A DNA stretch of 64,000 bases from Thermoplasmata archaeon (lineage in GTDB: Archaea; Thermoplasmatota; E2; JACPAO01; JAHFTW01), in contig JAXDQS010000003.1 of assembly GCA_034667725.1 (NCBI GenBank), positions 32,001 to 96,000 on the forward strand, read 5' to 3'. The position numbers were made by a program, and so were the translations under genes. Positions within the stretch are counted from its first letter, which is position 1, and each line of letters opens with the position of its first letter. This document shows positions 16,776-30,188 of the stretch, one piece after another. The notes under the pieces are model-generated. The model saw only the letters and a list, made by a program, of their open reading frames with translations, searched no databases and had not been told where the DNA came from.

Positions 16776-19700
16776 ATGGTCCGGTGGGGACACCCTCGCG
16801 CGTTCGTCTGGCTCGCCATTGCTAGCGCCTTCATCCTGGCCGGCCTCGGCACCGCCGCTGGCGGCCCTTGGACGCCCGCCACCGGCACCTCCACGGACGG
16901 CCTCTACCACGGCAAGGACTACGCCGACACGGTGTCGTCCCAGCCCTTGGTCTACGGCTCGGGCGACTGGGCGGCCACCGGCGGGCCGCCGATGCCGTGG
17001 TCGAACATCGACATCTCGACCTGCACCACGGGCTGCGTGACCCCCGCCCTGCCCGACTCCTACGGCGGCGGCGCCTGGAGCGCCGACCAGGCCATCGGCT
17101 TCAACTTCGAGTTCTTCGGCTGCACCTACAACAAGCTCAAGCTGCACGGCTTCGGCATCGTCGGCTTCTCCGGCAACACCTGCACCGCGGCCCTCCCGAC
17201 CCCGGGCAACATCGACACCAACAACGTGCTGACCTCGAGCAGCAAGGCGTGGTACGTCATCTTCCCGTTCACCAGCACCTCCCAGAACGCGGCCTGCAAG
17301 GGCGGCTCGATCGCGGCGGGCAACGTCAAGACCATGCAGGTCCCCGCCACGGCCACCAGCCCCGCCGTGTTCGTCATCCAGGTCACCAACGCGCCCTTCA
17401 CCAACGGCGGCTCGTGCTCGACCTCGACCTACGGCATCAACACCTACCAGGTGCGGCTCTACCAAGGCACCAACGTCATCGAGGTCCACTACAAGCAGGT
17501 CAGCAACGCCGACCCGTACGGCGGCGCCGACGTCGAGTCCGGCATCAAGGGCGGCTCGACCGCGAAGTACCTGCGCTACGCCAACCTCTACGTCACGGGC
17601 GCCACCAAGACCGCGAGCGGCCTCGTCGTCCAGTACCGCCCCATGGTCGCCACCCCCACCGCGCCGGTGCCGACCCCGAAGGCCGTGAACGACACCTACA
17701 CCTTCGACTTCCTCAACAACGGCCCGACCTTCATCGTGGACGGCCTGCCGCACGGCACCCCGTCCTACACCGCCAACCGGCTCACCAAGAACGACCTCTC
17801 GGTCGCCTCCGCCTCGTTCATCGCGCTGCACGCCAGCGGCCCCTCCGGCGGCAGCCTCCAGGCCGCGAGCGGCGGTGCCTGCACCGGCAGCAGCCCCGCC
17901 ATCTCGACCGACGGCAGCTTCTGCTTCACCCCGCCCGGGCTCAACCCGTGCGCCGAGGGCCCGTACCACTTCAACTACCGCGTCAAGGACGCCTGGAACT
18001 CCAGCCCCGTCGGCAACGTGACGCTCCAGTTCGTCAACTGCAACATCGCGCCGGTGGCCAACGACGACGCCTACTCGGCCACCGAGGACACGCCGGTCAC
18101 CGTGGCGGCCACCGCCCCCGCCGGCGCGTGCCCGCCCGCCGCCGGCCCGCTGTGCAACGACACCGACGACGGCCAGCCCGCCGTCCCCGGCTCGCTGTCC
18201 GCCCTGCTGTCGGCCGCGCCGCTCACGGGCGCCGTCGCAGGCGCGGGGCTGCCGGGCGTCGCGCCGGGCGGCGACGGCGCCTTCACCTACACGCCGGCCG
18301 CCAACGTGTGCGGCACGGACACCTTCCGGTACCAGGCCTACGACGGCATCGCGCGCAGCAACAACGCCACCGTCACCATCGCCATCGCGTGCACCCCCGA
18401 CTCGCCCGTGGCCACCGACGACGCCTACACGCTCGACGAGGACACCACGCTGGCTGTGGACTCGACCTGCCTGGGCTCGCTCGTGAGCCCGAAGTGCAAC
18501 GACGCCGACCCCGACGACCAGACCGGCACGCTGCACCGCGACGCCGCCGGCTTCTCCATCACGGCGGCGCCGCTGCACGGCACCATCGCGTTCCCGGCGT
18601 GCGCGAGCTGCCCCGGCGGCCCCGGCGGCGACTTCGCCTACACGCCTGCCGCCAACTACTGCGGCACCGACGCGCTGCAGTACAAGCTCACGGACGACGC
18701 GGGGATGCCCGCCTCGGCGCCGGCCACCATCGCGTTCACCGTCGTCTGCCAGCCGGACGACGACGCCTACGCGACGGTGGAGGGCGAGGAGCTCAACGTG
18801 CCCGCCCTCGGCGTGCTCGCCAACGACAACGACGCCTTGGGCAGCGTCCCCATGACGGCCGTCCTCTACGGCGCGGGGCCCACGCACACCATCCCGAGCG
18901 GCTTCGCGCTGCACCCCGACGGCTCGTTCGACTACGCGCCCGCCGCCGGCTACGTCGGCACCGACGCGTTCCAGTACAAGACCAACCAGGGCGGCACCCT
19001 GTCGGCCCCGGTCACGGCCACCATCACCATCAGCCCGGTCAACCCGGCGCTCATCGCGCGCGGCGACACCCGCAAGATGTCCGGCGCCGACCACTCGTTC
19101 GGCGCCACCGAGGACGCCACCGTCGTCGTGAGCTCCCCCGTCCACGCCACCGTGCCCGGCATGGTCGGCGTCCTTGCCAACGACCACATCGCCGACACCA
19201 CGACCGCGTGGTCGCTGGTGCTGGTGTCGCTGCCCGCCCACGGCACCGTGACCCTCCGCAACGACGGCTCGTTCGACTACGACGCCAGCGAGGACGACTA
19301 CAACGGCCCCGACAACTTCCGCTACAAGATCGTCCAAGGCGCCCAGGAGAGCAACCCCGCCATCGTCCAGGTCCGGGTCGCCTCGGTCAACGACGCCCCC
19401 ATCGGCCTGTCGCGCAGCTACCCCTGCATCGACGAGGACACCTGGCTGACGGTCGCCGCCGCCAGCGGCCTCCTGGTGGGCTCGACCGACCGCGCCGGCC
19501 TGCCCGACGAGGGCAACTTCCCGCTCGTGCCGGTGCTGGCCACCCCCGCCATGCTCGGCACCGTCCTCGTCAACTCCGACGGCTCGTTCAGCTACACGCC
19601 CGACGCCAACAAGAACGGCGCCGACAGCTTCCAGGTCCGGCTGCGCGACGCCAAGGGCACCCCGCTCTCGGCCCCGCTCACGATCAGCCTCTGCGTCACC

Positions 19701-21257
19701 CCGAAGACCGACCCGCCGGTGGCCGTCAACGACGCCTGCAACGCCTACCTCGGCTACCGCAAGACCGTCGCCGCCCCGGGCGTCCTGGGCAACGACCTCG
19801 ACCCCGACATCCCCAACGGCGACACCATCTCGATCGTGCCCAGCTCGCTGTCCTACACGGGCCCCGGAACCTTCGTGGTCAACGCCGACGGCTCCTGGCG
19901 CTACGACCCCGACCCCGCCATGACGACCGCCTACATGGCCGGCTTCACGTACCGCATCCGCGACTCGACCAACCAGCTGAGCAACGTCGCCACCGTGTCG
20001 TGCAGCGTCCAGCCCAACCTGCCGCCCACCGCCGCCTTCTCGCCCAGCAGCCAGGTCGCGCTGGCCCACGAAGGCATCAGCTTCCTCGACGCCAGCACCG
20101 ACCCCGACGGCACGGTCGCCGCCTGGTCGTGGGACTTCGGCGACGGCTACACCAGCACGCTGCGCTCCCCGACCCACGCCTTCGCGGGCCCCGGCGTCTA
20201 CCTGGTCCGCCTGGTGGTGGCCGACGACCTCGGCGCCACCGACGACACGGCCCACTACGTCGAGGTCCGCCTGCCCGCCGAGACCACGCCGGTGGACGCC
20301 AACGAGGCCGGCCAGGACGCGCCCGAGGCCAACGCCGGCCCCGACCTCACGGTGCCCGAAGGCAGCGAGGTCACGGTCCACGGCGTCGTGGCCAAGGGCG
20401 ACGGCCGCCACGTCCAATGGCGCCTCCTCGGCGGCCCCGCGGTCGCCATCCGCGACCCGACGGCGCTCAACCTCGAGTTCACCGCCCCCGTCCTCACCAG
20501 CGACGAGCCGGTGCTGCTGACGTTCTCGCTCACGGTCGGCAACGACCGGCGCGACTCGCTGCCCGACCTCGTCGAGGTGCTCGTGGTCACGAAGAACCAC
20601 GCCCCCGAGGCCGACGCCGGCCCCGCCGCGACCGCGCTGCCCGGCGCCAAGGTCACGCTCGACGGCTCGCGCTCCAAGGACGCGGACGGCGACGCGCTGT
20701 CCTACGCGTGGCGCCAGGCCACCGGCCCGAAGGCCGAGCTCGCCGGCGCGGACGGCCCCAAGCCCAGCTTCACGCTGCCGCAGGCCGCCGCCGGAACGGT
20801 GCTGGTGTTCGAGCTCGAGGTCCGCGACGCCCGCGGCGCCTCCGTGGACGCCGTCCAGGTGCTGGTCGGCCGCGCCCCCGAGGCGCCCGCCGGCTTCCAC
20901 CTGGAGCAGGGCACGGACGGCGAAGTCCGGTTCGAGGCCATCCCCGAAGGCCAGTACGCCTGGTTCTTCGGCGACGGCGCCTCCTCGACCGAGGCCGCGC
21001 CCGCGCACGTCTACACCCGCTCCGGCGACTACGTCGTGACGCTGCGGGTCGCCACCGACAAGGGCGTCCAGGAGTTCAGCGAGCTGGTGCGCGTCGACGC
21101 GCCCGCCGTCCAGGAGCGCGCCCGCCCCCAGGTCGAGCTGGCCGACGCCTCGGGCGCGGACGCCGGCCTCTGGGTGGGGCTGGGCGCCGCCGCCTTGGTC
21201 GCGGCCGGCCTGGCCACGGTTCTCGTCGTGGGCCTGCGCAAAAACCGCGCCCGCTAA
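16776..21257 (+). CDS. Surface protein 3: same architecture, about 7 stalk repeats
   Basis: Signal peptide; GFNFEFFG; repeated PVAxDD..ED...DGxFxYTP...G.D.F.Y units; WSWDFGDG; TM + basic tail. Confidence 0.85.
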   Translation: MVRWGHPRAFVWLAIASAFILAGLGTAAGGPWTPATGTSTDGLYHGKDYADTVSSQPLVYGSGDWAATGGPPMPWSNIDISTCTTGCVTPALPDSYGGGAWSADQAIGFNFEFFGCTYNKLKLHGFGIVGFSGNTCTAALPTPGNIDTNNVLTSSSKAWYVIFPFTSTSQNAACKGGSIAAGNVKTMQVPATATSPAVFVIQVTNAPFTNGGSCSTSTYGINTYQVRLYQGTNVIEVHYKQVSNADPYGGADVESGIKGGSTAKYLRYANLYVTGATKTASGLVVQYRPMVATPTAPVPTPKAVNDTYTFDFLNNGPTFIVDGLPHGTPSYTANRLTKNDLSVASASFIALHASGPSGGSLQAASGGACTGSSPAISTDGSFCFTPPGLNPCAEGPYHFNYRVKDAWNSSPVGNVTLQFVNCNIAPVANDDAYSATEDTPVTVAATAPAGACPPAAGPLCNDTDDGQPAVPGSLSALLSAAPLTGAVAGAGLPGVAPGGDGAFTYTPAANVCGTDTFRYQAYDGIARSNNATVTIAIACTPDSPVATDDAYTLDEDTTLAVDSTCLGSLVSPKCNDADPDDQTGTLHRDAAGFSITAAPLHGTIAFPACASCPGGPGGDFAYTPAANYCGTDALQYKLTDDAGMPASAPATIAFTVVCQPDDDAYATVEGEELNVPALGVLANDNDALGSVPMTAVLYGAGPTHTIPSGFALHPDGSFDYAPAAGYVGTDAFQYKTNQGGTLSAPVTATITISPVNPALIARGDTRKMSGADHSFGATEDATVVVSSPVHATVPGMVGVLANDHIADTTTAWSLVLVSLPAHGTVTLRNDGSFDYDASEDDYNGPDNFRYKIVQGAQESNPAIVQVRVASVNDAPIGLSRSYPCIDEDTWLTVAAASGLLVGSTDRAGLPDEGNFPLVPVLATPAMLGTVLVNSDGSFSYTPDANKNGADSFQVRLRDAKGTPLSAPLTISLCVTPKTDPPVAVNDACNAYLGYRKTVAAPGVLGNDLDPDIPNGDTISIVPSSLSYTGPGTFVVNADGSWRYDPDPAMTTAYMAGFTYRIRDSTNQLSNVATVSCSVQPNLPPTAAFSPSSQVALAHEGISFLDASTDPDGTVAAWSWDFGDGYTSTLRSPTHAFAGPGVYLVRLVVADDLGATDDTAHYVEVRLPAETTPVDANEAGQDAPEANAGPDLTVPEGSEVTVHGVVAKGDGRHVQWRLLGGPAVAIRDPTALNLEFTAPVLTSDEPVLLTFSLTVGNDRRDSLPDLVEVLVVTKNHAPEADAGPAATALPGAKVTLDGSRSKDADGDALSYAWRQATGPKAELAGADGPKPSFTLPQAAAGTVLVFELEVRDARGASVDAVQVLVGRAPEAPAGFHLEQGTDGEVRFEAIPEGQYAWFFGDGASSTEAAPAHVYTRSGDYVVTLRVATDKGVQEFSELVRVDAPAVQERARPQVELADASGADAGLWVGLGAAALVAAGLATVLVVGLRKNRAR

Positions 21258-21328
21258 GGGGGCCGGCCAGCAAAGGTTCAAGAGCGGCCGTTCACGATAC
21301 CGGCCGTCCTTCTCGGACGGTTGGTCGG

Positions 21329-23593
21329 ATGTCCATGCACCCTCGGAAACTCCTCTTGCTCGCGGCGGTCGCCGTGTTCGTCGGGGCCAGCGTCGCGCCG
21401 GCCGCCAACGCCTGGAGCGGGCTGGACGCGCCCTCGCCCTCCAAGTACGCCGGCGTCGACAGCGTCGGCACCTCGCTCCCGTGGGACGACTACACCAACC
21501 TGGTGGACCCGAACCCCGGCCTGGACTCCGACGGCGTCGTGACCCGCAGCACCTACTACCTGGTGTGCGAGTTCATGGTGGACCTCGGCTTCGACTTCAC
21601 CTACTACGGCAAGACCTACCGCAAGGCGGCCGTCTCGCCGTGGGGCTACATCCGCCCCGTGCCGGACACCGCCACCGCGACCTTCTGCTACAACTATTAC
21701 CCGTACTCCAAGCTCGGCACCGCTTCGCCCCCGGGCGCCATCGCCGGCCTGTGGACCTACTACGCCTACTACTACTCGGGCGGCACCATCACCGCGGGCA
21801 CCGTCGGCGCCCCGGGCGAGCGCGAGTTCGCCGTCCAGTACGACAAGATGCGCGAGGGCACCAGCCTGCAGTTCGCCACCTTCGAGATCCGGCTCTACGA
21901 GGCGGACAACCACATCGAGGTCCGCATCCGCGACGCCACCGTCGGCGTCGAGTACCCCTCGTACACCTACTCCTACTACACCGCCCAAGGCATCCAGGAC
22001 GGCGTCTACGGCGTCACCGGCGTGACCCGCGGCCTGGACAAGCAATACTCGGGCTACTGCTCGTGGTCCTCCTGGATGGGCGGCACCCCGCTCAAGTGCA
22101 AGCGCGTGTTCGACGACGTCCGCACCATCTACATGCCGGCGCCCCAGCTTGACTTCAAGGTCGAGCCCAAGCCGCCGTGCCCCGGCGAGGACGCCACCTT
22201 CACCGCGAAGTACCAGTCCCCGATCGGCCCGCCCCGGAAGGTCACCTGGAGCTTCGGCGAGGAGGGCGAGACCGCCATGCACCGCTTCCTCGACGGCCCC
22301 GCCGAGACCGAGGTCAAGATGACCGCGGAGTTCGACTACGGCTTCACCATGGACTGGGCCAAGAACGTCCACGTCAACGGCTGCAAGCCGCCGGTGGCCG
22401 TGTTCCGCGCCGACGTCTTCGGCACCGAGGGCGCCGTCAGCGACGAGTCCTACGACGTCGACGGCCGCGTCAAGACCTGGACCTGGGACTGGGGCGACGG
22501 CACCCCGAAGGTCCTCGGGCGCGTCCCGCCGGCCCACCCCTACACCGCCGAAGGCAGCTACGAGGTCCGCCTCACCGTCACCGACAACGAGGGCCTCTCC
22601 GGCACCTCCACCCAGGTCGTGCGCGTCAAGGCGGCCGCGGGCTACATCGGCCCCAAGCCGGTCGCCGACGCCGGCCCCGACCAGACCGTCCGCAACGGCG
22701 ACCGCGTCCAGCTCGACGGCTCCGGCGCCGACGCCAACCGCGCCGTCCGCGTCACCTGGACCCAGTTGTCGGGCCCGCTCGTCGACCTCGAGGCCGCCGA
22801 CACCGCGCGCCCCAGCTTCGTGCCGGCCGCGATCGCCGAGAACGCGCCCCAAGTCTACGGCTTCGCGCTGCAGATCTTCGACGGCTTCCGCACCTCCGAC
22901 CCCGACCTCGTCGTGGTCACCGTCGAGCCCCGCGTGCCGGTGCCGACCGCCGACGCCGGCGTGGACCTGCTGGTCCCGCCCGGCCTCCGCGTCGGCCTCG
23001 ACGCCTCCGGCTCCAAGGACGCCTTCGGCAACCCTCTCACCTACGCCTGGCGCCAGGTGGACGGCCCCAAGGTCGAGCTGCAGGACGCCGACCAGGTCGC
23101 CCCCAGCTTCGACGCCCCCAAGGCGACGGAGCCGGTCGAGCTGGTGTTCGAGGTCGTGGCCGCCAACTCCGAGGAGCGCTCCCTGCCCGACACCGTGAAG
23201 GTCGTCGTGCAGCCGCCGGTCGAGGCCAACGTCCAAGGCTTCACCCATCGCCCGGACTACGCCAGCGGCCTGAACGTCGTCCAGTTCCAGGCCACCGTCA
23301 AGGCGCTCGACGAGGCCACGTTCGAGTGGGACTTCGGCGACGGCACCGCCCCGCGCACCGGCCCCCTGGTCGAGCACGCCTACCAGGAAGCCGGCGCCTA
23401 CCCCGTCACGCTGCGCGTCAAGGGCGCCGGCCTCGAGCAGGTCTTCCAGGACAACGTCGAGGTCGCGCACGCCGAGGCGCCCGCCACGCCCGCCCTGGGC
23501 GCGCCGGCCGAGGCGCAGCCGAGCCCGGGCGTCGCCCCGCTGGCCGTCCTCGCCCTCTTGGCCCTGGCGGCCTTCGCGGCCCGGCGCCGGTGA
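21329..23593 (+). CDS. Surface protein 4: nidogen-like domain + PKD domains, PGF-CTERM-like tail
   Basis: 3' part of ORF 16868..23593. Signal peptide; LGFDFTYYG; WDWGDG and WDFGDG; tail SPGVAPLAVLALLALAAFAARRR. Confidence 0.85.
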   Translation: MSMHPRKLLLLAAVAVFVGASVAPAANAWSGLDAPSPSKYAGVDSVGTSLPWDDYTNLVDPNPGLDSDGVVTRSTYYLVCEFMVDLGFDFTYYGKTYRKAAVSPWGYIRPVPDTATATFCYNYYPYSKLGTASPPGAIAGLWTYYAYYYSGGTITAGTVGAPGEREFAVQYDKMREGTSLQFATFEIRLYEADNHIEVRIRDATVGVEYPSYTYSYYTAQGIQDGVYGVTGVTRGLDKQYSGYCSWSSWMGGTPLKCKRVFDDVRTIYMPAPQLDFKVEPKPPCPGEDATFTAKYQSPIGPPRKVTWSFGEEGETAMHRFLDGPAETEVKMTAEFDYGFTMDWAKNVHVNGCKPPVAVFRADVFGTEGAVSDESYDVDGRVKTWTWDWGDGTPKVLGRVPPAHPYTAEGSYEVRLTVTDNEGLSGTSTQVVRVKAAAGYIGPKPVADAGPDQTVRNGDRVQLDGSGADANRAVRVTWTQLSGPLVDLEAADTARPSFVPAAIAENAPQVYGFALQIFDGFRTSDPDLVVVTVEPRVPVPTADAGVDLLVPPGLRVGLDASGSKDAFGNPLTYAWRQVDGPKVELQDADQVAPSFDAPKATEPVELVFEVVAANSEERSLPDTVKVVVQPPVEANVQGFTHRPDYASGLNVVQFQATVKALDEATFEWDFGDGTAPRTGPLVEHAYQEAGAYPVTLRVKGAGLEQVFQDNVEVAHAEAPATPALGAPAEAQPSPGVAPLAVLALLALAAFAARRR

Positions 23594-23643: not shown

Positions 23644-24957
23644 ATGCGCATCGCCGCCCTTGCCTGCCTCGCCGCCCTCGCCCTTGCCGGGTGCACGGCC
23701 GACGACGGCCCCGCCACCACGCCGCCGCCGACCGACGAGGCGCCCAGCGCCCTCGACCGCCTGCGCGAGGCGATGGCCGGCGTGCCGTGCGACGTGCCGC
23801 CGCCGGCGGGCAACGAGAACACGGCCAACCTCAAGCTGCTGGCCACCATCCAAATCCCCGCCGAGGCCGACGGCATCCACGCCGAGCTGGACATCCGCGG
23901 CGACCTGGCCGTCCACGCCCGCTACGGCTCCGGCGGCTTCGAAATCTACGACATCTCCGACCCGCTGCGGCCGCTGCACCTCGGCAACTTCACCGAGGCC
24001 GACGGCGCCCTCGACGTCAAGTTCGGCCCGGACAACACCACGGTGTTCGTCGGCACCGGCGCCGGCATCACCATGGTGGACCTGCGCGACCCCTTCAACC
24101 CCGTCAAGTCCGGCGAGTGGCGGTTCACCGACGCCCAGGTCGCCACCGACCCGCTGCCGCGCGTCGGCGAGAACGCCCACATGTTCTACGCCAAGCGCAT
24201 CGCGGGCAAGGACTGGCTGTTCCTGGCGCCCAACTCCAACACCGGCGCGTGGGTCCTGGAGATCGGCGGCACCCCGGAGGCGCGGACCTTGACCTACCGC
24301 GCCCAGACCCTGCCCGTCCAAGGCGGCCCGCTCGGCCCCCACGACATCTACGTCCAGCAGGACGCGCTCGACGGCTCCTGGTACCTCTACTCCGCCGACG
24401 GCTTCCACGGCTGGACCGCGTTCAACGTGGACGACCCCGCCAGCCCCCAGCCCGCCGGCGGCTTCGTGAACCCCGCCGAGGGGGCCTACACCCACACCTT
24501 GCAGGCGGCGGCCGTGAACGGCAAACGCATCGTCGCCACCATCGCGGAGATCGGCGCCGACTTCCTGCGCCTCTACGACGCCACCAACCTCGCCGCCCCG
24601 GTCCTCGTGGGCGTCTGGCAGGCCGACACCACGCCGCAGGGCGCCTCCTCGCCGCAGCACAACCTGAACATCGCCAACGGCAGCCTCTACATCTCGTACT
24701 ACGGGCACGGGATGTACGTGTTCGACCTCGCGGCGGCCACCGCCGGCCCGTCCCTGCCGCTGGCCGGCAGCGCCACCCTGGCCCCGAGCGCCCACTGGTC
24801 GGTCCTCGGCGAGAACGTGGACCAAGGGTTCACCGGCTACTGGGACACCCTCGTCAAGGACGGCGTCGTCTATGTCAGCCACATCGAGGGCGGCCTCCTG
24901 GTGCTCGGCTACGGCTGCAACGCCCCAGGCGACCCGGCGGCCACCAGCGACGGATAA
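23644..24957 (+). CDS. LVIVD-repeat (beta-propeller) lipoprotein
   Basis: Lipobox LAGC; repeated IYDISDP, MVDLRDP, FNVDDP and LYDATN blades with His motifs. Confidence 0.8.
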   Translation: MRIAALACLAALALAGCTADDGPATTPPPTDEAPSALDRLREAMAGVPCDVPPPAGNENTANLKLLATIQIPAEADGIHAELDIRGDLAVHARYGSGGFEIYDISDPLRPLHLGNFTEADGALDVKFGPDNTTVFVGTGAGITMVDLRDPFNPVKSGEWRFTDAQVATDPLPRVGENAHMFYAKRIAGKDWLFLAPNSNTGAWVLEIGGTPEARTLTYRAQTLPVQGGPLGPHDIYVQQDALDGSWYLYSADGFHGWTAFNVDDPASPQPAGGFVNPAEGAYTHTLQAAAVNGKRIVATIAEIGADFLRLYDATNLAAPVLVGVWQADTTPQGASSPQHNLNIANGSLYISYYGHGMYVFDLAAATAGPSLPLAGSATLAPSAHWSVLGENVDQGFTGYWDTLVKDGVVYVSHIEGGLLVLGYGCNAPGDPAATSDG

Positions 24958-24982
24958 GCACCCCGTCCCGCGGGCGTCATGC

Positions 24983-24988
24983 TTTAAG
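24983..24988 (+). promoter_or_regulatory. TATA-like box (TTTAAG), probably leaderless transcript of the Lrp/AsnC gene
   Basis: AT-rich hexamer about 30 nt before ATG 25018; no SD motif. Confidence 0.55.
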
Positions 24989-25017
24989 CGGGGCCCCCAG
25001 CATCCACCGGCGCGAAC

Positions 25018-25251
25018 ATGGCCGTCGGATTCGTCCTCATCAGCGCCGCCCCGGGCAAGGAGCACGAGGTCTACAACACCCTCCTCAAGGTGAGCGAGAT
25101 CGTCGAGCTGCACCCCCTGTTCGGCGAGTACGACCTGATCGCCAAGCTCGAGGCCGCCGACTTCGACACGCTGGGCCACGTCATCGTCAACAAGATCCGC
25201 TCCATCGAGGGCGTCGTGGACACCAAGACGCTCACGGGCACCAAGTTCTAG
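25018..25251 (+). CDS. Stand-alone Lrp/AsnC ligand-binding (RAM) domain protein
   Basis: FVLI...LFGEYDLIAK...IRSIEGVVDTKTL; no HTH. Confidence 0.9.
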   Translation: MAVGFVLISAAPGKEHEVYNTLLKVSEIVELHPLFGEYDLIAKLEAADFDTLGHVIVNKIRSIEGVVDTKTLTGTKF

Positions 25252-25252
25252 C

Positions 25253-25558
25253 ATGGCCGGCCTCGTCTCCACCCTGCTCGCGAACCTGTTCCTGAGCTTC
25301 GCGGTCATGCTGCTGGTCGCCGGCCTGTTCGGCGCCTACTACGGCAAGGGCCGCAGCCGCAGCATCGGGGTCGCGGTCGCCATCCTCGCCGGCGTTTTGA
25401 TCGGCCTGTTCTGCGCCCTCACCTGGCCGCTCGTGCCAGGCCTGGAGCGCGTGTTCGACCCGCAGCTGGTGCTCACGAGCATGGCGGCGGTCGGCGGGGC
25501 GCTCTTGGGGGCGCTGGTGGCCGGCGGGCTGTACGTGTTGATCGTGGTGCGGAACTAG
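25253..25558 (+). CDS. Small membrane protein (about 3 TM)
   Basis: Hydrophobic 101-aa ORF 1 nt after the upstream stop. Confidence 0.7.
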   Translation: MAGLVSTLLANLFLSFAVMLLVAGLFGAYYGKGRSRSIGVAVAILAGVLIGLFCALTWPLVPGLERVFDPQLVLTSMAAVGGALLGALVAGGLYVLIVVRN

Positions 25559-25827
25559 CCGCTCCCGCGCACGTACCCACCCACACAGATTCCACAGACC
25601 GAAACGATCGTGGGTTCTGTGGAATCTGTGTCTCGTCGGGTGCGTCGGGCCGTCCATCCAACCCACTCACCCACCCCGCCCACCCACACAGATTCCACAG
25701 ACCGAAAACGATGGTGGATCTGTGTCTAGTCGGGCGAATCGGGCTGCCCACCCACGCACCCACACAGATTCCACAGACCGAAAACGATCATGGGGTTCTG
25801 TGGAATCTGTGTCTAGTGGGGGAGCGG
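25559..25827. repeat. Array of three palindromic REP/MITE-like units between convergent genes
   Basis: ACACAGATTCCACAGA...TCTGTGGAATCTGTGT: perfect 16-bp inverted repeats in unit 1 (25583-25631) and unit 3 (25762-25812); right arm partly deleted in unit 2 (25681-25734). Whole array flanked by CCGCTCCC / GGGAGCGG. Confidence 0.9.
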
Positions 25828-25832
25828 GTGGC

Positions 25833-27032
<1,200 letters not shown>

Positions 27033-27227
27033 GGGGGCCCGCAGGGCGGCCCGGGGTTCAAGGTTGCGAGCGGCGGCCCGGGCTTGCCGCGACCGCAAGC
27101 GCCGCGCCATCCGTCGGCCGGATTGTATGTTCCGCAGCGAAGATTCCTGAAAAGGGGCCATTTTTTGGGCAGGTCCGCGGAAACCGTAGCCAGCGCGTCG
27201 GGCAAAGGAGTCCCGCGACCACAAATC

Positions 27228-30011: not shown

Positions 30012-30133
30012 CCGCTCCCACGGGCCGCAGAACCCGGGATCACACGAATTCCACGAACGAAGATTCCACAGACCCGGACTTTTGGAGCGGGCGGGGCCAG
30101 GAACAAAATTCCATGATTTCTGTGGGAATCTTC
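30012..30133. repeat. Degenerate copy of the 25.6-kb palindromic element
   Basis: Starts TAG|CCGCTCCC like the first array; contains ACACGAATTCCACGAA, GAAGATTCCACAGACC and the near-inverted TTCTGTGGGAATCTTC; lies between convergent genes. Confidence 0.7.
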
Positions 30134-30188
30134 CGAAATTGCCGCATTTGTCCAAGCGGGGAGAAGGGGAGAAGTCGGGCGCTCCGGC

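Follow-up and report, generated by a model that had tools for sequence, protein, structure and literature searches.

A tandem array of three DNA hairpins lies between a small membrane open reading frame (ORF) and the convergent phosphoglycerate kinase gene pgk of a Thermoplasmata archaeon (positions 25559-25832 of the window, the whole 64,000-nucleotide stretch of DNA that was analysed). The best explanation of this pgk array, which we hold with moderate confidence, is that it consists of tandem, gene-less copies of a palindrome that resembles the repetitive extragenic palindromic (REP) elements of bacteria and that is associated with a putative nuclease of the GxxExxY family, which would bind it, cut it and drive its spread. 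The array belongs to a dispersed family of many copies, orthologous sites are empty in related species, its three units are products of local duplication, and GxxExxY genes are associated with arms of this kind within the genus and across domains. The original prediction, made from the letters of the window, was of a non-autonomous mobile palindrome family. It has gained a dispersed family, variation between sites and a linked nuclease gene, while the part of the nuclease in moving the copies is something that we only infer.

The hairpins share one design. Exact 16-nt left arms lie at 25583-25598, 25686-25701 and 25762-25777 and exact inverted right arms at 25616-25631 and 25797-25812, and the arm is built of two 9-nt units with a CACAGA core. 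Unit 1 (25583-25635) has a 17-nt loop and the foot CTCG (25632-25635), and unit 3 (25762-25816) has a 19-nt loop and the foot CTAG (25813-25816); both were delimited by arm matches and folding. Unit 2 (25686-25729), for which alignment was used as well, is truncated. It retains the outer 8 nt of its right arm (25718-25725) and the foot CTAG (25726-25729), and ~11-13 nt are gone according to the alignment. The loop start CCGAAA(A)CGAT is common to all three units. When the 16-mer is matched at ≤3 mismatches, the window holds 6 matches against 0.13 expected, and 6 were reached in 0 of 100 shuffles. Folded as DNA hairpins, unit 1 has an energy of -18.8 kcal/mol (z -4.25, given also as -4.3) and unit 3 of -18.7 kcal/mol (z -4.95, given also as -5.0), each with z below -4 on both strands, and the truncated unit 2 reaches -10.7 kcal/mol.

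The array starts at 25559, where it abuts the TAG stop of the small ORF (25556-25558), and its end is 5 nt short of the pgk stop (25833-25835, minus strand). An 8-bp outer inverted repeat (25559-25566 and 25820-25827) is contained in a C-rich left flank (25559-25582) and a G-rich right flank (25817-25832), and it looks like part of the flanks, C-rich on the left and G-rich on the right, that are found with most copies of the family. Linker 1 (25636-25685, 74% GC) is G-rich and then C-rich, and its first part recurs after unit 2, as seen from a repeat family and the alignment; linker 2 (25730-25761) is defined by sequence and GC (75%). The GC content of the array is 60.6%, against 70-73% in the flanking genes, and inside the array the hairpin cores have 47-49% and the linkers 74-75%. 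Nearly all of this anatomy had been described in the original prediction: three units, 9-nt-periodic arms, the loop start, the feet and the shortened second unit could all be located, and the start after a TAG stop, the outer repeat, the convergent genes and the low GC content were found too. Its linker lengths of 40 and 22 nt need correction, as the linkers span 50 and 28 nt when counted between a foot and the arm that follows it, and the earlier values fit only if a CACCC-type prefix is counted into each unit.

The genome that holds the window (hereafter G000; 2.32 Mb, 71% GC, 26 contigs, 90% complete) carries ribosomal protein S27e and an archaeal-type RNase P RNA above gathering score, which identifies it as archaeal. 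It contains 86 exact copies of the arm, 128 at ≤1 mismatch and 171 at ≤3 mismatches, distributed over 67 loci that are mostly intergenic. Locus contexts were counted for the 54 loci with an arm at ≤2 mismatches, and these counts are approximate, as genes were called with a crude caller based on GC at third codon positions (82% coding). No called gene is overlapped by 46 of the 54 loci, and convergent spacers are favoured (25/54 loci against a 21% background, p = 3.6e-5). Simple hairpins make up ~14 loci; their loops of 14-19 nt are unrelated between loci, and their arms continue outwards into CTGG, or at the opposite end into CTAG or CCAG. A further 98 units at 37 loci form head-to-tail arrays of 1-5 longer units of ~75 or ~118 nt. 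These long units are hairpins as well, with a left arm, a tight loop or conserved insert, and a longer, more degenerate right arm. A division into hairpins and same-strand tandem repeats was rejected, since the right arm of the ~75-nt unit, with its extra G and degenerate units, had escaped the mismatch filter. A CRISPR-like reading was rejected too, because the inter-arm sequences are conserved modules and not unique spacers.

The four bases outside the arm in the 128 copies are CTGG in 60, ACGC in 17 and CTAG in 13. The foot is a 4-nt outward extension of the arm with the consensus CTGG and CTAG as a minority variant, and it is not a GTAG-like tag. The suggestion that the foot tetranucleotide points to an HUH/RAYT system is not supported, as no Y1 gene was found in G000. 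As a separate observation, CTAG is strongly under-represented in G000 (0.39 per kb against 2.6 expected from base composition), and 13 of its 897 copies are at arm feet.

Arms of this family also occur outside the genome. Five metagenome contigs (L200-L204, GC 47-69%) carry hairpins with the exact 16-nt arm of G000, extended to three 9-nt units per arm and with short variable loops; L200 has two clusters. These contigs gave no blastn match to G000, and no GxxExxY gene was detectable on them within the fetched 3.6-7.6 kb.

The setting of the copies raises the possibility that they are structural or regulatory elements of the host, such as stabilisers of RNA 3' ends, terminators, insulators or nucleoid-protein sites, to which the nuclease is linked only incidentally. 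Their enrichment between converging 3' ends and the stable hairpins on both strands would suit such roles, which bacterial REPs have as secondary functions (PMC3733652). We regard this as quite unlikely. No T-run follows any stem on either strand, with TTTT found only inside two loops on the pgk strand, and the asymmetric units have no orientation bias relative to the transcription of their neighbours (6 vs 4 in tandem contexts, 7 vs 10 in convergent ones), so a terminator or other RNA-level role is unsupported. In addition, three sister species lack any element at the pgk spacer, and a gene-arm association that recurs in 63% of 78 distant loci, described below, is hard to call incidental. The location of the array would reflect tolerance of insertions between converging 3' ends. 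Were the nuclease irrelevant, the array would be one of many tolerated intergenic palindromes.

The gene that ties the family to a nuclease is the single GxxExxY gene of G000 (TIGR04256, E 4e-37; PF13366), which encodes 147 aa on the minus strand of contig C5 (135449-135892), a different contig from that of the pgk array. An array of the same arms, ~400 nt long and with alternating copies, begins ~40 nt past the stop codon on the 3' side of this gene, so copies do adjoin a gene of one of the nuclease types (GxxExxY, RAYT or other) that the original prediction had named. No other arm pair encloses any gene in G000; the GxxExxY locus is the sole one enclosed. The residues G24, E27 and Y30 together with D67, E77 and K79 are invariant in 20 copies from the genus. 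An AlphaFold model of the protein (pLDDT, its confidence score, 85.7) adopts a PD-(D/E)XK fold, and the structures closest to the model are Cas4 SSO0001, lambda exonuclease, RecB-type nuclease domains and Hjc. A sequence search detected no solved structure for GxxExxY. Ten sister genomes do not share the position of the G000 cassette; in 5 of these, an amidohydrolase-like gene comes right after the neighbouring 464-aa gene.

Within the genus, GxxExxY genes are present in 12 of 12 sister genomes (1-8 each); of 28 genomes from other genera in the class, 1 has any. Twenty of the genus genes were fetched: 12 are bracketed by matching 9-nt-periodic arms that read towards the gene, and 6 more have such arms on one side. 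The arm sequence varies from gene to gene. Five arm variants were counted across all 13 genomes, and each peaks in a genome whose own gene bears that variant and is mostly at 0 elsewhere. The peaks are 128 for CACAGA (G000), 7 for GCCGAT (G006), 69 and 37 for CACGAA (G001 and G009), 55 for CGCGGA (G012) and 43 for CACTGA (G010). A GxxExxY gene stands at an orthologous position, with the same two neighbour genes, in G006 (locus L091) and G008 (L098), where the arms are GCCGAT-type and CACCGAT-type, respectively, and match left to right within their own locus. Because the arms differ between the species and match within each, both arms must have changed in concert.

The association extends well beyond the genus. 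Eighty distant homologues, mostly bacterial and 36-56% identical, were collected from Treponema, Bacteroidales, Verrucomicrobiota, Planctomycetota and others, as well as from one Thermoplasmatota metagenome-assembled genome (MAG), and 78 of them have both flanks. In 49 of these 78 loci (63%) the 300-nt flanks share an exact inverted match of ≥12 nt. Permuted locus pairs do so in 15 of 229 cases, and common motifs inflate this control. Repeats at a lag of 9 nt number 539 in the 200-nt flanks of the 80 homologues and 41 in control DNA 500-900 nt away; they are present on both sides in 42/80 loci and on one side in 27/80. Common cores in the distant flanks are ACGGAT, CGAATT, CAGAAT, CAGATT and CACAGA. 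Judged by these flanks, the pairing of the GxxExxY gene with arms spans archaea and bacteria. The statement in the original prediction that 9-nt-periodic palindromes flank GxxExxY genes is borne out by the 20 genus loci and the 78 distant loci. Our literature search, outside which most subscription journals lay, found no published account of this pairing and met GxxExxY only in passing mentions.

The pgk spacer itself has a history that can be followed in sister species of the same genus, whose PGK is 71-80% identical to that of G000. The small ORF and pgk are still convergent there, and orthologues of the small ORF (52-64% identity, tblastn) lie beside pgk in 5. The 101-aa small ORF is a real gene, since its orthologues adjoin pgk in five sister species. 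The spacer, which is 274 nt long in G000, has only 14 nt in G005 and 4 nt in G004, and in G006 the two stop codons overlap. This is the presence/absence variation that a comparison of orthologous pgk loci for empty sites, proposed with the original prediction, was meant to reveal. In G012 the spacer is 510 nt long and holds nested palindromes of other 9-nt families, and in G011 it is 170 nt of unrelated sequence; the palindromes of both differ from those of G000. Since its contents differ between G000, G012 and G011, the spacer has been filled independently in different lineages. The nested structure of G012 (L117:985-1500) is a large outer CACGGA/CACAGA-type palindrome that encloses a second, CGCGGA-type palindrome. 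In G002 (L113), where synteny is different, three tandem 9-nt CTCGCGTAA-type units and then a CGCGGA-like palindrome lie ~170-260 nt downstream of the pgk stop.

The three units of G000 can be aligned from the flank over arm, loop and foot into the first part of the linker, and their loop motif occurs genome-wide at this locus only. This private shared loop and the alignment show that the array is a local tandem duplication of one copy. Three independent insertions were rejected, as the loop is common to the units and absent elsewhere in G000. An exact search of metagenome contigs for the junction of the small ORF and the array, directed at near-identical strains, gave nothing. The three points on which the original prediction could have fallen have now been examined, and we find ~67 loci, mostly intergenic, rather than two, variation at orthologous sites and an associated nuclease.

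We propose the following course of events for the pgk array. A gene-less copy of the palindrome, with the same arms as those beside the GxxExxY gene, would have entered the spacer between the small ORF and pgk. The arrived copy would then have duplicated in place twice, and the middle copy would later have lost part of its right arm. The GxxExxY nuclease, acting in trans, may bind the iterated 9-nt units and may cut at or near the folded or cruciform arms. Host repair or recombination could then copy or retain the element, in a manner that would resemble REP with RAYT or NTS with Ssn.

Both of these systems are instructive. REP elements, including those known as BIME (bacterial interspersed mosaic elements) and REPIN, are extragenic palindromes with a repeat-flanked gene for an enzyme, the RAYT (Y1/HUH) transposase (PMC3116915, PMC3733652, PMC5581495). 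They are like the family described here in that they are short, extragenic, present in tens to hundreds of copies and often clustered in tandem at gene 3' ends; in both, a low-copy enzyme gene is flanked by inverted repeats, and several repeat families, each with its own gene, exist within one genus. The differences are that the enzyme here is GxxExxY with a PD-(D/E)XK fold and not Y1/HUH, of which none was found, that there is no GTAG tag and the foot is CTGG or CTAG, that the arms are made of 2-3 iterated 9-nt units, and that the host is an archaeon. Ssn proteins are GIY-YIG single-strand nucleases that go with NTS/SRM repeats, and 42% of their genes are flanked on both sides (PMC11893778), compared with ~54-63% of GxxExxY genes by two measures. 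Here too a small nuclease gene is flanked by a hairpin repeat of which hundreds of copies are scattered elsewhere, and repeat variants track nuclease variants. The GxxExxY nuclease belongs to another superfamily, however, its repeats are designed as 9-nt iterons, and the only GIY-YIG match of G000 is far from any arm. The family would work like both systems and belongs to neither, because it has no Y1 enzyme and no GTAG tag and its nuclease is of another kind than GIY-YIG.

The parallel with Ssn leads to a second explanation, in which the GxxExxY nuclease recognises the repeats without moving them. The repeats would then be host marks for sequence-specific cutting, used for example in recombination control, against incoming DNA or on replication-associated single strands, and would spread by ordinary duplication and recombination. 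A gene flanked by its own repeats with hundreds of dispersed copies parallels Ssn and NTS (PMC11893778), the three pgk units come from local duplication, the arms are identical where the loops are unrelated, as if the arms were under selection, and the same arm sequence is found in unrelated organisms. Plain duplication does not explain the empty orthologous sites and the different palindrome families in the same spacer, which point to repeated de novo arrival. On balance we consider this explanation unlikely.

Conventional mobilisers were sought in G000 as well. The assembly has no match to Y1/RAYT (Y1_Tnp, PF01797), although controls were detected, and it has no TnpB. Its single DDE_Tnp_1 gene is on C23, a 3-kb contig with no arm copy. 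The only GIY-YIG match (PF01541; C3:190555-190773) is inside a 945-aa frame, and the nearest arm loci are ~19 kb and ~59 kb off. RAYT/Y1, TnpB, DDE and GIY-YIG mobilisers were rejected on this basis, their genes being absent or far from the arms. Even so, the copies might be ordinary miniature inverted-repeat transposable elements (MITEs) of a conventional transposase (DDE, HUH Y1/RAYT or IS200/IS605) that is lost or encoded in the unassembled 10%. G000 is 90% complete, and its elements are short, bounded by inverted repeats, gene-less and dispersed, as MITEs are. As with MITEs, there are far more foldback copies without a gene than with one, the gene occupies the place of the hairpin loop, and orthologous sites show presence/absence variation. 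They differ from MITEs in having no recognised transposase and no readable target-site duplication, and in that there is a single gene-bearing copy with a clear array on one side only and loops that are unrelated between copies. We find this explanation most unlikely, given that Y1 and TnpB are missing, that the lone DDE gene has no arm copy on its contig, that no arm pair encloses anything but the GxxExxY locus, and that the arms are iterated 9-nt units like those round GxxExxY genes everywhere.

Several observations weigh against the reading that we prefer, in which the pgk array is made of gene-less copies that a GxxExxY nuclease has spread. The GxxExxY gene of G000 has a clear array on one side only, and its upstream side has at best a decayed arm. 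The match between genes and arms is imperfect elsewhere: G001 has 36 CGCGGA-type arms and only one gene was found in it, and G019 has 6 arms and no gene. G000 itself has ~21 CACGGA-type and a few CACCGA-type hairpins without a gene of their own in the 90%-complete assembly. In the CACGGA sister family the core is changed on both arms (e.g. C1:345458, C3:171718 and C3:252950), and the assembly has no second GxxExxY gene to go with the CACGGA and CACCGA hairpins. Mixed arms round single genes elsewhere suggest that one enzyme may serve both CACAGA and CACGGA arms. Co-occurrence of genes and arms within the genus is confounded by kinship, as kin are not independent. The arms are near-identical and the loops wholly different between loci, a pattern that recent transposition would give, and selection acting on the arms would give equally well. 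Two units from the same 75-nt array resemble each other no more than units from different loci do, so these arrays are old or arose by other means. No target-site duplication is readable, and the empty-site junctions, taken from species with 71-80% PGK identity, are not alignable base for base. Finally, all relatives are separate species, so insertion and deletion are not separable by mechanism.

GxxExxY (TIGR04256/PF13366) is a very common family of small proteins without an assigned function, and the sequence-matched palindromes offer a testable candidate substrate, namely the arms at 25583-25631 of the window for the product of the gene at C5:135449-135892. A wider proposal, possible in our view though short of probable, is that GxxExxY and palindromes of 9-nt iterons constitute a third, PD-(D/E)XK-based class of nuclease-plus-dispersed-repeat systems after RAYT/REP and Ssn/NTS, common to archaea and bacteria. 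The iterated units would programme binding and cutting by the nuclease, and a single trans-acting gene would propagate or maintain gene-less hairpins such as the pgk array. If the partnership of nuclease and palindromes holds, archaea would have a REP-like biology built on another enzyme fold, a large share of the intergenic repeats of the lineage would be accounted for, and the arm variants found in nature could mark out a set of programmable, sequence-specific nucleases.

The genes around the array and a second locus complete the picture of the window. The small hydrophobic ORF (25253-25558, plus strand) has no Pfam match, and pgk (25833-27035, minus strand; PF00162, E 2e-165) has orthologues in 11 of 12 sister species. 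The closest named relatives of its product are in MAGs labelled Thermoplasmatota or Halobacteriales. The enzyme is a bacterial-type PGK: beyond its own kin (70-72%), it is most similar to proteins of Bacillota, Chloroflexota and Cyanobacteria, at 55-63% identity, which suggests that pgk may be an old bacterial acquisition. Rfam gave no known RNA family at 24500-27000, where the sole match was to a miRNA model at 22 bits against a gathering score of 100, and identity of the array with a known RNA family was rejected because this match is sub-threshold. The second locus of the family (30012-30145, plus strand) is a degenerate long-type unit directly after the stop of a DUF58 gene. It contains a CACGAA-type 16-mer at 30042, a 2-mismatch arm at 30057-30072, an insert and a right-arm module, and this order of modules is that of the ~118-nt units elsewhere. 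Its start after a TAG stop, near 30012, is like the left outer flank of the pgk array. Upstream of the array region, a very long open frame of 2241 aa extends over 16868-23593 on the plus strand.
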